From NCBI GenBank assembly GCA_013374855.1, contig CP055308.1, forward strand, positions 178,277-242,276: a stretch of DNA of 64,000 nt. Reading direction: 5' to 3'. Below are positions 6,035-12,119 of the stretch, in pieces (positions within the stretch are counted from its first letter, which is position 1; every line of letters begins with the position of its first letter). The notes beneath the pieces were generated by a model, which saw only the letters and a program-made list of their open reading frames with translations, was not told the origin of the DNA and did not search any database. Position numbers and translations under genes: made by a program. This DNA comes from Candidatus Woesebacteria bacterium (GTDB taxonomy: Bacteria; Patescibacteriota; Microgenomatia; UBA8517).

Positions 6035-7006
6035 TCAATACTGATTAATAAAATTATTCTTTTTTCTTATTAACTCAATTGCCTTCTTCCTTATGTCTTT
6101 TGCGGTTAAACCGTGTTTTTCCCGCAATTCATTTTGAGCACCTGATTCTCCAAATCTATCATCTACTGCCACCACCCCAACAGGAATAGGATAATTCTCA
6201 GAGACAACCTGCGAGACAACAGATCCAAGACCCCCAACTTTCTGATGCTCTTCAACAACAAGCAAACAACCTGAAAGTTTCGCCAAAGACAAAATAGTAA
6301 AAGTATCCAAAGGCTTTAAAGAATAGCAATTAAGAACTGATGATTCTATCCCCTCTTTCTCAAGCAAAGAAGCTGCTTCAAGTGCTTCAGAAAGAATTGA
6401 ACCATAACCCAAAATTACAACCTCTGGATTTTTAGCCTTCTTCAAAAACAAAGACCCTCCAATTCTGAATTCCGAATTCTCATTTGTCAGAAGCGGAGTA
6501 TTCTCCCTCTCAAGTCTTATATAAAAGGGCTTTTTTTCTTTCGACGCAACAATAATAGATTTTCGCGCCTGCCAAAAATCACAAGGAACAAGAACGCTAA
6601 AATTAGGGAGAGCCTGCATAATGGATATGTCTTCAAGTGCCTGATGTGTCGCACCATCTGCACCCGCTGAAAAACCCCCATGTGAACCAATCAAAATAAC
6701 AGACAAATTGTTTATAGCAATTGTAGTCCTTATCTGTTCCACTGCTCTTCCTGGAACAAAGACCCCAAAAGAGGTTGCCACTGCAGTTTTTCCATAGTTG
6801 GCAAGCCCTGAAGCAATGGTTACCAAAGCCTGCTCTGCAACTCCCACTTCAAAAAAGCGGTCAGGAAACTCCTTAGCAAAAAGATGCACCCTTGTCGATT
6901 CCTCCAAGTCTGCTGTCAAAACAACCAACTCTTTGTTTAACTTCCCCGATTCAAGCAGACCTTCCCCAAATCCGTCTCTAATAGATTTTTTAACAATATC
7001 TCCCAT
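6035..7006 (-). CDS. Transketolase, C-terminal (pyrimidine-binding/C-terminal domain) subunit of a split transketolase.
   Basis: Pyr-binding domain motifs (FEVGVAEQALVTIASGLA, IGSHGGFSAGADGATHQALEDI), located directly downstream of the N-terminal subunit gene. Confidence 0.9.
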   Translation of the reverse strand: MGDIVKKSIRDGFGEGLLESGKLNKELVVLTADLEESTRVHLFAKEFPDRFFEVGVAEQALVTIASGLANYGKTAVATSFGVFVPGRAVEQIRTTIAINNLSVILIGSHGGFSAGADGATHQALEDISIMQALPNFSVLVPCDFWQARKSIIVASKEKKPFYIRLERENTPLLTNENSEFRIGGSLFLKKAKNPEVVILGYGSILSEALEAASLLEKEGIESSVLNCYSLKPLDTFTILSLAKLSGCLLVVEEHQKVGGLGSVVSQVVSENYPIPVGVVAVDDRFGESGAQNELREKHGLTAKDIRKKAIELIRKKNNFINQY

Positions 7007-7023: not shown

Positions 7024-7857
7024 CTAGACCTTCAAATCCTCTATTGCTCTTTTGAATTCCTCCTCATTTGGTGCCTTACCATGCCACTGCCACTTGCCTT
7101 CCATAAAAGAAACCCCCCTACCCGCAATAGTTTCCGCAATAATTACCACAGGCTTTTCTTTTTCTTCTTTCGCTTTTTCAAAAGCTCCAATTAACTGATC
7201 AAAATTATGCCCATTTACAGAAAAAACAGAAAAACCAAAAGCTCTATATTTCTCCTCAAGCGACCCAAGTGGCATAATATCATCAGTTTTACCACTCAGC
7301 TGTATCCCATTCTTATCAACAATAACAACAAGATTGGAAAGCTTGTATTTTGATGCAACCATCACAGCTTCCCAATGATTGCCACTATTCTGCTCCCCAT
7401 CACTTGTTAAGCAGTAAACTCTGAAATTCTTCCCATCAATCCGCCCACCAAGGGCAATACCTACAGCTTGGGCAAGACCAGATCCCAAAGGTCCCGATGT
7501 TGTTTCTATTCCGGGAAGTTTCCCTCTTTGAGGGTGACCCTGCAGACGGCCTCCAATCTTTCTTAAACTAAAAAGCTCGTTTTCTGTAAAATAGCCACTC
7601 AAAGCAAGAACAGCATAAAGCGCAGGACAAACATGCCCGTTTGATAAAACAAAGCGATCCCTTTCTTCCCAGTTGGGGTTTTTGGGATCGTGTTTTAGAA
7701 TCTTAAAATACAAAGCAGTCAAAATATCAGCTGAGCTTAAAGAACCCGCAGGATGACCAGATCCGGCAGTGGCAATTGATTCAAGAGAAAGTCTTCTTAC
7801 TTTTTTGGCTATTTTCTCAAGATTGGAAAAAGAATCCATTATTTTCTGAAAGCACAC
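7024..7857 (-). CDS. Transketolase, N-terminal (thiamine-diphosphate-binding) subunit.
   Basis: TPP-binding motifs (GSGHPAGSLSSADILTALYF, CLTSDGEQNSGNHWEA). Confidence 0.9.
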   Translation of the reverse strand: MCFQKIMDSFSNLEKIAKKVRRLSLESIATAGSGHPAGSLSSADILTALYFKILKHDPKNPNWEERDRFVLSNGHVCPALYAVLALSGYFTENELFSLRKIGGRLQGHPQRGKLPGIETTSGPLGSGLAQAVGIALGGRIDGKNFRVYCLTSDGEQNSGNHWEAVMVASKYKLSNLVVIVDKNGIQLSGKTDDIMPLGSLEEKYRAFGFSVFSVNGHNFDQLIGAFEKAKEEKEKPVVIIAETIAGRGVSFMEGKWQWHGKAPNEEEFKRAIEDLKV

Positions 7858-8474
7858 TCCTTGCCATCACAAACAAGGCATCTGGAATGATCAAATTCCT
7901 CAAGTTTTCTGTGGAGTCTTTTAATGGCAGGTAAAACAGAATCAATAGTTTCGCAAATTTCAAAAACAGAAAGCTCATGTTTGTCTAAATTCATATTCTT
8001 ACGTAGCACATCAATTATAGGTATCCAATGATTTCCAAAAAGAATAAAAGGCTTGTGATGTCCATAATAAAGTTTAGCTAGCACCCACGCCGTTCCAAGC
8101 TCAGACAATGTACCTGTTCCACCTTTGAATATAATAAAAATATCCGCGTGTTCTATTAGCTTAAACATCCTCTCTATATAATTTGTAGTTTTTATCTCCT
8201 CATCTGTCACATTGCCAACATACCTTCCTTCAAAGCCGGGTGCGTCTTTAGGATTAAAGGTTACAGAAAGAGTCTCTCCTCCAACACTTTGGGCACCTTT
8301 TGTAGAAGCATCCATCACACCGGGCCCCCCACCATTAACTATGGTAAAGCCACGAGAAGCCAGCAGCCTTGCCACTTCAAAAGCCTGCTTATATTCCTTA
8401 CTTTCTGGAGGAACTTCAGCGTCCCCAAAAAAAGCTACATTTTTAAAATCAATATGTCCTATGCCAGGATTCAT
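7839..8474 (-). CDS. LOG-family (TIGR00730, lysine-decarboxylase-like) Rossmann-fold nucleotide-binding protein with a C-terminal CxxC pair.
   Basis: LOG motifs NGGGPGVMDA and KGGTGTLSE; C-terminal CLVCDGKEC. Confidence 0.75.
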   Translation of the reverse strand: MNPGIGHIDFKNVAFFGDAEVPPESKEYKQAFEVARLLASRGFTIVNGGGPGVMDASTKGAQSVGGETLSVTFNPKDAPGFEGRYVGNVTDEEIKTTNYIERMFKLIEHADIFIIFKGGTGTLSELGTAWVLAKLYYGHHKPFILFGNHWIPIIDVLRKNMNLDKHELSVFEICETIDSVLPAIKRLHRKLEEFDHSRCLVCDGKECAFRK

Positions 8475-9220: not shown

Positions 9221-9499
9221 CTAACCTATTGGGCAAATATGATTTGGCTCACAAGGTTGACAATCTGGCCTACACCTAGGTTTACAAGGACTACAATAAT
9301 CATTTGGTCTACACTCCGGCGAGCAACTTGGAGAACAATTTGGATAACAAAGGGGTGGCCAGCAAGTCGGTGGTTCACAATGTGCCGGATCACAATCTGG
9401 CGGAAAACAATCGGGGCCGCAACTGAAATCACGCGTTTTGGTAACCAACTTTATTTCCGGCTTATCAACAACTCCACGCTTACACACCTCTTTCATCAT
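9221..9499 (-). CDS. Cys/Pro-rich small protein (92 aa, 15 Cys in the last ~65 residues with a 4-5 residue C-x-P periodicity). Candidate RiPP precursor peptide.
   Basis: Sequence ...DFSCGPDCFPPDCDPAHCEPPTCWPPLCYPNCSPSCSPECRPNDYCSPCKPRCRPDCQPCEPNHICPIG. Overlaps the 3' end of the upstream rSAM/SPASM gene by 20 nt on the same strand. Confidence 0.5.
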   Translation of the reverse strand: MMKEVCKRGVVDKPEIKLVTKTRDFSCGPDCFPPDCDPAHCEPPTCWPPLCYPNCSPSCSPECRPNDYCSPCKPRCRPDCQPCEPNHICPIG

Positions 9500-10916
9500 T
9501 TTTCACCCCCTTTCTAAATATCTCCACAAAACGATCAATTGGAAAATACTGAACCTGACCGTCAACAAATTTCCATACTCCCTTACCCCACTCACCAGTG
9601 TAAGGATTGTAAGTACACCTGGGTTGGGGAAAATCCCATCTGGCCTCGTCTTTATCTCCCGACGTCATAGCCAACGGTCTACAATCATAACATGCATATC
9701 TATATTCACAATCTTTGCATACTAGGACATCGTCAAGAGTCTGTCTCCATATTTTTTGTGTATCTTCAGAAAAAACAATATCAGAAAGTTCTGTCTCTCT
9801 AACATTCCCCAAAACAATATTTCTAGCAAAAATACAGGGAATAACATCCCCATTGGCAGTTACTGCCAGTTTCCCCGCCAAACAGGGATTTAAATTCATA
9901 TTTCTTATAAATCCTTCCTTATCCACAGAAAAATCAGGCTCCATTCTTAACGAATATTTCACAATCGCATCAACTGACGGGAGCAAATAATTATCTCTGC
10001 CAGAACCCATAGGTCTTACCACATCTGGGGAAACACGCCCAATCCCCCAAGAAGAGACAACTCTAAGAGTCTCCTCCAGAGTCTCTTCATTTATAGACAT
10101 ACCAATAATAGCTATACGAAACGGCACACCATATTCCTGCAAAAGTTTTATCGTTTCCATTGTCTTTTTGTAACTCCCTAGACATCCCGTGACCTTGTCA
10201 TGAACCTCTGAATCCACAGAGTATAGGGATAAAGCAAAATGTAAACCCAATTCCTTGGCTTCTTTTACCTGAGGCTCGGTAATGAGTGTGCCATTAGTAA
10301 ATACTTCTACAAACTCAAAACCTCTACCAATCGCGTAATTAGCAAGATCAAGAAAACCCTTTCCTCTACTACGAAAAATCGCGGGTTCACCACCAATCAA
10401 CTGAACTCTTCGTGTTCCGCCAATATACGCTTGGTCAATCACATCCACCCATTCTTCATAACTAAGCAGGTCAGATTTTTCTAAAAACGAATTCTGTCCA
10501 AAACTACCATAACAATGAGCACACTTCAAATTACACTTGCCTGTTATCTCCAACCACAAGAAAGAAACAAAACCTGTTTCTAAATTTTCCGAATCTTCAG
10601 ACTTCTCCAAAATACTAACCTTTTTAGATTCCTCTGGTAAAATCCCTAGAGGTCTAACGTCTGAAATAAATTTTTCATCACCTCCAAACAATAAAACTTC
10701 TGCACCTTTATCGTTAAGAGAGTATACTAACCCGCGATTTGTATCATACACAGCAGCTCTGGAAGCCCCACGCACAAGATAAACTCCTTCCCTAAGTAGA
10801 AAAACTTTATCTGTCTCTCTTCTATTACTTACTGAGTGTTCTACACCCATTATAAAGTGGGCATGCCAATTATAATAATTGTGCACCAACAAGTCAACCT
10901 TAAACGCCAAAATCAC
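9480..10916 (-). CDS. Radical SAM enzyme with a C-terminal SPASM domain and an N-terminal PqqD/RRE-like region. Putative RiPP maturase. The true start may be the internal Met (MGVEHS...) at about 10850.
   Basis: CxxxCxxC (CNLKCAHCYG); Cys-rich C-terminus (CIFARN...CKDCEYRYACYDC); N-terminal YDTNRGLVYSLNDKGAEVLLF resembles PqqD-type recognition elements. Confidence 0.8.
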   Translation of the reverse strand: MILAFKVDLLVHNYYNWHAHFIMGVEHSVSNRRETDKVFLLREGVYLVRGASRAAVYDTNRGLVYSLNDKGAEVLLFGGDEKFISDVRPLGILPEESKKVSILEKSEDSENLETGFVSFLWLEITGKCNLKCAHCYGSFGQNSFLEKSDLLSYEEWVDVIDQAYIGGTRRVQLIGGEPAIFRSRGKGFLDLANYAIGRGFEFVEVFTNGTLITEPQVKEAKELGLHFALSLYSVDSEVHDKVTGCLGSYKKTMETIKLLQEYGVPFRIAIIGMSINEETLEETLRVVSSWGIGRVSPDVVRPMGSGRDNYLLPSVDAIVKYSLRMEPDFSVDKEGFIRNMNLNPCLAGKLAVTANGDVIPCIFARNIVLGNVRETELSDIVFSEDTQKIWRQTLDDVLVCKDCEYRYACYDCRPLAMTSGDKDEARWDFPQPRCTYNPYTGEWGKGVWKFVDGQVQYFPIDRFVEIFRKGVKNDERGV

Positions 10917-12090: not shown

Positions 12091-12119
12091 GTAAAAGGAC
12101 AGGGTCGGACCCTGTCCGC
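12091..12119 (-). terminator. Intrinsic terminator-like hairpin immediately after the pgk stop (10-bp perfect stem ggacagggtc/gaccctgtcc followed by TTTTAC on the minus strand).
   Basis: Perfect inverted repeat at 12097-12117 with a T-run on the coding (minus) strand. Confidence 0.55.

Follow-up and report, generated by a model that had tools for sequence, protein, structure and literature searches.

A candidate two-gene peptide-maturation module, recurrent in CPR bacteria, pairs a radical SAM/SPASM enzyme with a Cys-x-Pro repeat peptide

The window, i.e., the whole stretch of 64,000 nucleotides analysed here, carries two overlapping genes on its minus strand (Table 1). One is an open reading frame at 9480..10916 that encodes a radical SAM/SPASM enzyme of 478 aa when counted from its GTG codon. 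The other encodes a 92-aa peptide and overlaps the stop end of the enzyme ORF by exactly 20 nt on the same strand. Both ORFs and their overlap had been placed correctly by the first-pass annotation, and its length of 478 aa holds for the mechanical ORF. The gene itself is likely shorter, spanning 9480..10850 and encoding 456 aa from an ATG (MGVEHS...). This is suggested by three features: the initial 22 residues of the ORF are not conserved among homologues, a promoter-like TTGACT-17-TATAAT falls within this extension (a consensus match only, of a kind no more numerous in the region than in shuffles), and the identical protein was called independently as 456 aa (P0002; locus L170). The same two-gene arrangement was present in an independent assembly (SRR6186653), and thus the pair is not an assembly artefact.

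Table 1 Features of the enzyme-peptide pair (positions in the window)
Feature	Position	Strand	Remarks
Precursor peptide gene (putative)	9221..9499	-	92 aa plus stop; ATG start
Core region	9224..9421	-	Residues 27-92; 15 Cys, 14 as Cys-x-Pro
Leader region	9422..9499	-	Residues 1-26
Leader motif KPEIKLVT, recognition-type	9440..9463	-	CPR precursors repeatedly show P-[TE]-[IV]-x-L-V-[TS]
Shine-Dalgarno-like GGGGGTG	9504..9510	-	4 nt upstream of the peptide ATG, within the 3' end of the enzyme gene; read from the sequence
Radical SAM/SPASM peptide maturase gene (putative)	9480..10850	-	456 aa; mechanical ORF reaches GTG at 10916
SPASM domain	9585..9884	-	Seven invariant Cys and family-specific RCTYNPYTGEWG motif
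Radical SAM core	10062..10550	-	Pfam PF04055 match
CNLKCAHC, CX3CX2C motif for the radical-SAM [4Fe-4S] cluster	10512..10535	-	Three Cys invariant in 119 homologues
N-terminal RRE-like (PqqD-fold) domain, predicted leader-binding	10641..10808	-	Residues ~15-70; four strands, two helices next
Promoter-like site TTGACT-17-TATAAT	10869..10897	-	Agrees with the consensus at 11/12 positions; shortly before the ATG at 10850

The pair lies in a run of genes on the same strand in the order tpi, rpiB, pgk, gap, the pair, rpe, a LOG/SLOG gene, tkt-N and tkt-C, with no protease or exporter adjoining the pair in the window. Recent horizontal insertion was rejected, as GC content and skew are uniform over 6-14.5 kb. 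The position between rpe and gap in a housekeeping operon had been taken as a sign of a conserved role. It is correct for this genome; however, a conserved placement in the glycolysis/pentose-phosphate string was rejected because each homologous locus has different surroundings, and already in L081, a relative with 59% identity, the pair does not lie between gap and rpe. It is the module itself that is conserved. In the loci examined, it is embedded among housekeeping genes that differ from locus to locus and has no dedicated transporter. A free-standing module amid such varied genes is easier to reconcile with a physiological role than with a classical antibiotic cluster.

Pfam profile searches of the enzyme detected a radical SAM domain (Radical_SAM, PF04055; E 3.8e-23, 82.9 bits against a cutoff of 29.5) and the SPASM-type C-terminus that had been proposed for it (SPASM, PF13186; E 1.7e-10, 41.5 bits against a cutoff of 21.5). 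The proposed CxxxCxxC cluster was recovered as well, and motif and above-cutoff profile scores together place the enzyme in both the radical SAM superfamily and the SPASM subfamily. Its SPASM Cys are arranged as C323-x10-G-x4-C339 (C323-x15-C339), C378-x2-C381-x5-C387-x2-C390 and C412, with a final spacing of X2 in contrast to X3 in the canonical CX9-15GX4C...CX2CX5CX3C...C. These seven Cys, like those of CX3CX2C, show no variation across 119 homologues. More than 1,100 homologues were found, of which the best 120 are full-length with identities of 38-59%, and nearly all homologues given a name by their source belong to CPR. The AF2 model of the enzyme reached a pLDDT of 90.8, and its best solved relative by sequence is SkfB (E 7e-21). 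A PqqD-like N-terminus, also claimed at first pass, was suggested at the fold level alone. In the predicted fold, the N-terminal domain is closest to lasso-peptide RREs and its best fold matches are leader-bound RREs, whereas neither three N-terminal domains nor the full enzyme matched the PqqD profile (PF05402) in Pfam (E up to 10), and a PDB sequence-profile search retrieved no RRE.

The 92-aa peptide is bipartite, with a leader and a Cys/Pro-repeat core as first described, and contains 16 Cys in all, 15 of them within the C-terminal 66 residues. Its 14 CxP units were reached in none of 100,000 shuffles of the core, where the maximum was 11. In comparison with the L081 relative, codons differ at 22 of 48 conserved residues, and these synonymous differences indicate that the peptide gene is under purifying selection at the protein level. 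That the peptide might be a frameshifted tail of the enzyme was rejected: in homologues, the peptide genes are separate and have their own intergenic spacer, and here the gene has its own Shine-Dalgarno-like sequence and ATG. Searches of Pfam and NCBIfam with the window peptide gave zero matches, as did an NCBIfam search with eight homologous peptides. A word-indexed search of 5.8 billion proteins retrieved only the window peptide itself, a full phmmer search of 1.84 billion representatives found four real relatives, and a profile built from 22 peptides retrieved eight proteins, none of them named. Ordinary sequence search thus misses the CxP peptide family, which could be reached only via the enzyme.

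Examination of the enzyme loci showed that the peptide gene is conserved beside the enzyme gene in relatives. By exact protein look-up, a CxP-repeat ORF was found in seven of seven distinct CPR loci, directly downstream and on the same strand in six, and most of the remaining full-length homologue loci at ≥31% identity also have one. Five full-length homologue loci (L005, L016, L034, L100 and L102) yielded no recognisable precursor. Besides CPR, CxP-bearing loci were found in Bacillota, Lutispora thermophila, Methanothrix, Bacteroidota, Nitrospirota and Myxococcota. Further, among six-frame ORFs from 987 kb, all 24 with at least four CxP adjoin the enzyme, and none occurred in loci having distant radical SAM enzymes only. 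The homologous small ORFs share the leader motif P-[TE]-[IV]-x-L-V-[TS] and a CxP core of 3-15 units, yet their sequences barely align. Being small, bipartite in leader and core, and conserved beside the enzyme, these genes have the properties of precursor-peptide genes. The central claim of the first-pass annotation, namely an RRE-radical SAM-SPASM maturase with a Cys/Pro-repeat precursor, survived the refutation tests posed for it beforehand and is supported.

A count over 25 peptides gave 169 of 178 Cys (95%) followed by Pro at +2. The residues at +1, +3 and +4 are variable, as is the spacing between Cys, and this pattern suggests a modification local to each unit. Asp or Asn stands at +3 in just 47 of the 178 units, and no acceptor residue but Pro is conserved; the classical ranthipeptide logic, from Cys to Asp, Asn or Thr, is therefore a poor fit. 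Trp or Phe at +1 (46/178) predominates in the repeats of Bacillota (CWPRQQ, CFPRQT), and in CPR peptides this residue is highly variable (G, S, D, E, K, R, Q and others).

We give a probability of about 0.5 to the reading that the pair is a two-gene RiPP module of a precursor and an RRE-guided, iterative radical SAM/SPASM enzyme, with a thioether as the most likely modification. In this mechanism, the leader motif KPEIKLVT of the 92-aa precursor would be bound as an added beta-strand by the RRE-like domain, bringing the Cys-x-Pro core to the radical-SAM active site; the conservation of the motif supports this binding only indirectly. There, the CX3CX2C cluster would split SAM to give a 5'-deoxyadenosyl radical, and the enzyme would iterate with one event per C-x-P unit, up to 14-15 events. 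Our leading guess for each event is a short-range S-C thioether, in which the Cys thiolate would be held at an open site of auxiliary cluster I in the seven-Cys SPASM domain and joined to a nearby carbon, which may belong to the conserved Pro or be a backbone C-alpha, as in sactionines; to our knowledge, no Cys-Pro thioether has been described. One site of the auxiliary cluster may be open because there are seven SPASM Cys instead of eight, and we take such a site to resemble that of thioether synthases such as CteB. The SPASM region, searched by sequence against the PDB to map its Cys ligands to CteB or anSME, gave a weak BtrN match only, so this argument rests on Cys counting. Such events would leave a Pro-rich peptide multiply stapled and rigid, and the module, having no dedicated transporter, may make a lineage-wide 'housekeeping' RiPP, like SCIFF in Clostridia.

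Comparison with known systems gave several partial likenesses. The sactipeptide synthases SkfB, AlbA and StsB have the same layout, i.e., a leader-binding N-terminal domain, a radical SAM core and a Fe-S auxiliary domain. Nevertheless, their models scored 66-77 bits against the enzyme, far below cutoffs of 300-850 (72-77 for AlbA and StsB, as partial matches), so the enzyme does not belong to any of them by sequence. Sactipeptides usually fold as hairpins whose Cys and acceptors lie in opposite halves, and this split is not seen in the CxP peptides. SCIFF cores have about 45 aa, six Cys, a conserved sequence and defined acceptor residues; in contrast to SCIFF and ranthipeptide systems (CteA-CteB, Tte1186), the core here is a C-x-P repeat of variable length in which no acceptor is conserved. 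In NCBIfam, the models for SCIFF maturase and PapB stayed below their cutoffs (PapB scored 57-58 bits against 340 in L014 and L007), and neither is among the best 25 matches of the window enzyme. Sequence membership of the ranthipeptide/SCIFF group is thus not indicated. With freyrasin/PapB (Cys-X3-Asp repeats) and the triceptides (three-residue cyclophane motifs), the module shares the concept of a short motif repeated in one core; there, each copy is modified locally and independently by one iterative radical SAM/SPASM enzyme, as proposed here, but the motif and the enzyme clade are different. The SPASM domain and the C-terminal extension bearing RCTYNPYTGEWG align well with the Grasp-with-SPASM maturase model TIGR04193 (residues 330-444, E 6e-25). 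However, only the C-terminal third of the enzyme aligns, the score of 88.4 bits is below the cutoff of 175, the precursors are unrelated, and the loci whose neighbouring genes were inspected showed no ATP-grasp gene near the pair; the enzyme is thus no member of this group.

No curated Pfam or NCBIfam model describes the CxP-repeat peptide/enzyme family, and we found no description of a C-x-P repeat radical SAM family in the literature, whose coverage was incomplete, so that this is an absence of evidence only. The pair, recurring in CPR and some other phyla, looks like an undescribed modified-peptide family. A stronger version, tentative and in our judgement somewhat doubtful, is that the CxP peptides represent an unrecognised RiPP class with a novel per-unit modification and a conserved physiological, non-antibiotic function in the genome-reduced CPR. 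Modifications of this sort could include a three-residue thioether ring from Cys to Pro or to a neighbouring residue, or multiple Cys-derived aldehydes, and redox, metal handling, envelope or host interaction could be among the functions. CPR/Patescibacteria have tiny genomes with few recognisable natural-product genes, and yet this two-gene module has more than 1,000 enzyme homologues, mostly in CPR metagenome bins. If it makes a conserved physiological peptide, it would join a small number of post-translational systems known to be lineage-wide in these uncultured bacteria; if the product is an ordinary sactipeptide or ranthipeptide, those classes would still be broadened in taxonomy and sequence. 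Peptides defined only by a leader motif and CxP units offer a clean, testable substrate for new radical-SAM chemistry, with a short precursor, a single-protein enzyme and hypotheses separable by expected mass shifts.

A different radical reaction acting on each unit or close to it, with the thiols left free, is unlikely in our view but has some points in its favour. It could be epimerisation, a Cys-derived heterocycle, or a C-C or C-O link whose partner would be Pro or the frequent aromatic residue at +1, which recalls three-residue cyclophane motifs. The peptide might then bind metal, form disulfides, or be processed to a small cofactor (cf. PQQ and mycofactocin). PqqE, MftC and SuiB are similarly close relatives of the enzyme, and an intracellular product would agree with both the housekeeping surroundings and the absence of a transporter. 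On the other hand, the variable +1 residue of CPR peptides indicates that an aromatic cross-link is not family-wide, the invariant Cys suggests that sulfur participates in the reaction, and no cofactor-pathway genes are co-conserved.

Against thioether chemistry, the main rival is Cys oxidation as in anSME, where C-beta hydrogen abstraction at the Cys of each unit would give a thioaldehyde and then formylglycine or another Cys-derived group, with no cross-link; we consider it improbable. Of the anSME motif C/S-x-P/A-x-R, the C-x-P part is found here, but only 10 of 178 units have Arg at +4. The anSME model TIGR03942 is absent from the best 25 NCBIfam matches of the window enzyme and scored 60.9 bits in L014, below its cutoff of 349. 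Moreover, anSME acts on one site of a large protein, is not known to have an RRE and carries eight-Cys, fully ligated auxiliary clusters, unlike the RRE-like domain and seven SPASM Cys seen here, and up to 14 aldehydes in one peptide would be very reactive.

That the small ORF is not the substrate at all, being either a fortuitous ORF or a metallothionein-like protein independent of an enzyme that acts elsewhere, would suit its lack of a database family, the few relatives retrieved by sequence search, and the pair standing without an adjoining protease or exporter, but is hardly credible given an adjacency to the enzyme clade kept across phyla despite changing neighbours, the conserved leader motif, the synonymous-substitution pattern of a coding gene, its own Shine-Dalgarno sequence and ATG, an overlap that suggests translational coupling, and the RRE-type domain of the enzyme.

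Finally, a possible third component was seen in part of the family. In the window, hmmsearch over all six-frame ORFs found no HExxH partner; in eight CPR loci, a protein with an invariant HExxH...E motif is encoded immediately after the peptide gene and is a candidate leader peptidase.

The radical SAM/SPASM enzyme and the Cys-x-Pro (CxP) peptide encoded beside it most probably constitute a maturase-substrate pair (we put the probability at about 0.85-0.9), and comparative evidence supports and strengthens the RiPP maturase/precursor interpretation offered by the first-pass annotation. The two ORFs, their minus-strand orientation and the 20-nt overlap of the peptide ORF with the last codons of the enzyme gene were confirmed, and an independently assembled contig shows the same arrangement. 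The radical SAM ORF itself stands, but not its 478-aa length. Residues 1-22, a GTG extension of 22 codons, were absent from all homologues compared, a promoter-like site lies there, and public data call the identical protein at 456 aa (database protein P0002 and the independent contig L170); the shorter ORF was therefore taken as the gene. The promoter-like site is a consensus match only, of a kind no commoner in the region than in shuffles, and suggests that the pair may own a promoter within the string of glycolysis genes. The peptide ATG is preceded, at a distance of 4 nt, by GGGGGTG. Of the 15 Cys in the C-terminal 66 residues of the peptide, 14 stand in Cys-x-Pro, a count reached by none of 100,000 composition-preserving shuffles (maximum 11).

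Coordinates of the gene pair, its surroundings and related features at homologous loci
Feature	Locus	Position	Strand	Remark
Enzyme ORF, mechanical	window	9480..10916	-	478 aa from GTG
Enzyme gene, likely	window	9480..10850	-	456 aa, conserved ATG
Peptide ORF	window	9221..9499	-	92 aa, starts ATG-ATG
Promoter-like TTGACT-17-TATAAT	window	10897..10869	-	11/12 match, inside GTG extension 10851-10916
tpi, rpiB, pgk, gap	window	upstream of pair	same as pair	
rpe, LOG/SLOG-family gene, split transketolase	window	downstream of pair	same as pair	
LOG/SLOG-family gene	window	7839-8474	-	Lysine_decarbox, LDcluster4
Transketolase genes	window	6035-7006, 7024-7857	-	
Terminator-like hairpin	window	12097-12117	-	between pgk and gap
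HExxH protein	L001	7626-8498	-	
HExxH protein	L002	1820-2668	-	
HExxH protein	L003	7595-8368	+	
HExxH protein	L082	7633-8517	-	
HExxH protein	L084	7583-8428	-	
HExxH protein	L088	7531-8316	+	
HExxH protein	L089	7708-8517	-	
HExxH protein	L092	2628-3518	-	
tig-clpP-clpX	L004, L011	2338-5531, 1808-5021	-	module divergently adjacent
Tandem precursors	L011	9012-9542, 9574-9831	+	
Longer precursors	L006, L098, L099	5680-5982, 529-924, 4440-4961	+	

Pfam searches of the enzyme matched Radical_SAM (E 3.8e-23) and SPASM (E 1.7e-10). Three Cys of the CX3CX2C motif and seven C-terminal Cys (C323-x10-G-x4-C339, C378-x2-C-x5-C-x2-C390 and C412) are invariant among 119 aligned homologues, bearing out the cluster and the SPASM-type C-terminus originally described. 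An AlphaFold2 model built from the 119-sequence alignment was confident (pLDDT 90.8). The N-terminal region, first called PqqD-like, had no Pfam match at E up to 10 and no PDB profile match by sequence, but is predicted to form four strands then two helices and is, by its fold, a putative RRE-like (RiPP recognition element) domain. No NCBIfam model came near its cutoff for this enzyme or four homologues from other phyla; the best partial matches to the core were NirJ2 and AhbD, and TIGR04193 (grasp-with-SPASM maturase) scored 88 bits (cutoff 175) over the SPASM region and C-terminal extension. The closest solved structure by sequence profile is SkfB (E 7e-21).

More than 1,100 enzyme homologues were found, the top 120 being full-length with 38-59% identity, and the few that are named belong nearly all to CPR bacteria (Roizman-, Davies- and Amesbacteria, WWE3 and unclassified Patescibacteria). 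We scanned six frames at seven distinct CPR loci obtained by exact protein look-up and at 160 loci collected by scanning genomes and metagenomes. In this decisive test the peptide proved conserved: a CxP-repeat ORF occurs at all seven CPR loci. In six it follows the enzyme gene immediately, on the same strand, and in L087 it precedes it by about 900 bp. Such an ORF is also present at most of the remaining loci whose full-length homologue has at least 31% identity. These include loci of Dojkabacteria, Curtissbacteria, Lutispora thermophila DSM 19022, Methanothrix, and Bacillota, Marinilabiliaceae, Nitrospirota and Polyangiaceae MAGs. Five full-length homologue loci (L005, L016, L034, L100 and L102) had no obvious precursor. 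Among 25,685 stop-to-stop ORFs of 20-220 aa in 987 kb of fetched DNA, the 24 with at least four CxP were all enzyme-adjacent, and none occurred in about 55 loci holding only distant radical SAM relatives. Furthermore, 48 peptide residues are conserved between the window and its nearest relative, L081 (enzyme 59% identical), 22 of them through different codons, which demonstrates selection on the protein. The idea that the peptide ORF is the frameshifted tail of a larger enzyme gene was ruled out, since a spacer divides the two genes in homologues.

Across 25 peptides, Pro occupies position +2 after 169 of 178 Cys; position +1 is nearly unconstrained, none of the residues D, R, N and S found at +3 dominates, and Cys spacing is mostly 4-6 but up to 24. 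The leaders share the motif P-[TE]-[IV]-x-L-V-[TS] (KPEIKLVT in the window, often PTIELVT in CPR), whereas Bacillota leaders carry RPEI[DE]DW. Bacillota MAG cores include, for example, eight CFPRQT plus three CWPRQQ units, and short precursors in L010 and L012 read LEI[QE]LV[TS]...CGPDTCPW-x-x-C. The two tandem precursors of L011 (Bacillota), whose repeat units are unlike (CWPWRGGGGG x7 and CWPRRRPPCSP-type), sit downstream of the enzyme at a distance of about 2 kb, past a rubrerythrin gene. Longer precursors, one from Methanothrix, lie upstream of the enzyme; counted from their likely start they span about 95-160 aa, and their CxP region leads into a charged, coiled-coil-like C-terminal follower (e.g., ...EQYEDLVNKVGKLEKEVQELRKRVK). 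A leader Cys outside the core is kept between the two closest relatives (Cys6, 9482-9484, MMKEVCK, in the window; Cys5, MKERCK, in L081).

The analysis establishes the enzyme's architecture, its pairing with the peptide, the bipartite form of the precursor and the local three-residue motif. Mechanistically, the leader motif would dock on the RRE-like sheet and the enzyme would work through the core iteratively. Because Cys and the Pro at +2 are the sole invariants while spacing and other residues drift, modification most likely stays within each C-x-P unit; the invariant Cys suggests that sulfur takes part. We tentatively favour a thioether (S-C) product, at slightly under even odds; SkfB, CteB, AlbA and StsB, all among the nearest relatives, are thioether synthases. 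By likeness to CteB, seven rather than eight SPASM Cys would presumably leave one position on an auxiliary cluster open to the substrate thiolate. Either a backbone C-alpha or the Pro ring could serve as acceptor, the latter being new, if true; enteropeptin is reportedly a precedent for a neighbour-to-neighbour sactionine. The main rival is anSME-type oxidation of Cys, as the sulfatase motif is built around C-x-P, but Arg at +4 is unconserved in the peptides, the enzyme falls outside the curated anSME model, and it carries the RRE-like domain. Epimerisation, aromatic cross-links or cofactor formation with free thiols are also possible.

The SCIFF/ranthipeptide cassette of Clostridia is closest in organisation, both being lineage-wide two-gene systems without an exporter; freyrasin and triceptides, as repeat-motif RiPPs, are closest in substrate logic, and anSME in the motif itself. 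Membership in each of these families failed on a curated-model or motif test. Neither the enzyme clade nor the peptides are represented by a Pfam model or by one in the June 2026 release of NCBIfam; public annotation gives only 'radical SAM protein' or 'hypothetical protein' for the enzyme and no name for the peptides. No published description was found in the literature searched, which was incompletely covered, and large radical SAM RiPP surveys may hold the family unnamed. It is a well-defined, experimentally tractable and seemingly undescribed RiPP family, abundant in CPR bacteria, whose chemistry may be new.

At eight CPR loci of otherwise different context, the peptide gene is immediately followed by a gene for a homologous 260-295-aa protein with an invariant H-E-x-x-H and a downstream invariant Glu. 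It matched no Pfam, NCBIfam or PDB sequence family and has no copy in the 64-kb window. It is a plausible candidate for a leader peptidase, and this lends the RiPP interpretation further weight. The L001 contig (CAZKCV010000004.1) is titled 'uncultured Gammaproteobacteria', yet its enzyme and PTIELVTP-leader peptide closely resemble the Roizmanbacteria-type locus L082, and their HExxH proteins are 52% identical; it may be mis-binned.

A physiological role had been proposed from operon position, which in the literal sense is unsupported, the gap-rpe placement being particular to this genome: L081 has different, opposite-strand neighbours, and other CPR loci adjoin glycosyltransferases, ribosomal proteins, IF-2/NusA or queuosine genes. 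Two Bacillota modules lie beside tig-clpP-clpX and that of L. thermophila (L014) follows ppdK, so housekeeping surroundings recur outside CPR too. No conserved dedicated exporter was found across the loci examined for context. Base composition is even around the pair in the window. The LOG/SLOG-family gene, between rpe and the transketolase N-terminal gene, overlaps both neighbours (by 4 nt and 19 nt), and its product has a Cys-rich tail (HSRCLVCDGKECAFRK). Transketolase is split between two separate genes, one for the N-terminal, TPP-binding portion and the other for the pyrimidine-binding and C-terminal portions. The terminator-like element, in which a T-run follows a 9-bp GC-rich hairpin, suggests that the glycolysis 'operon' may comprise more than one transcription unit.
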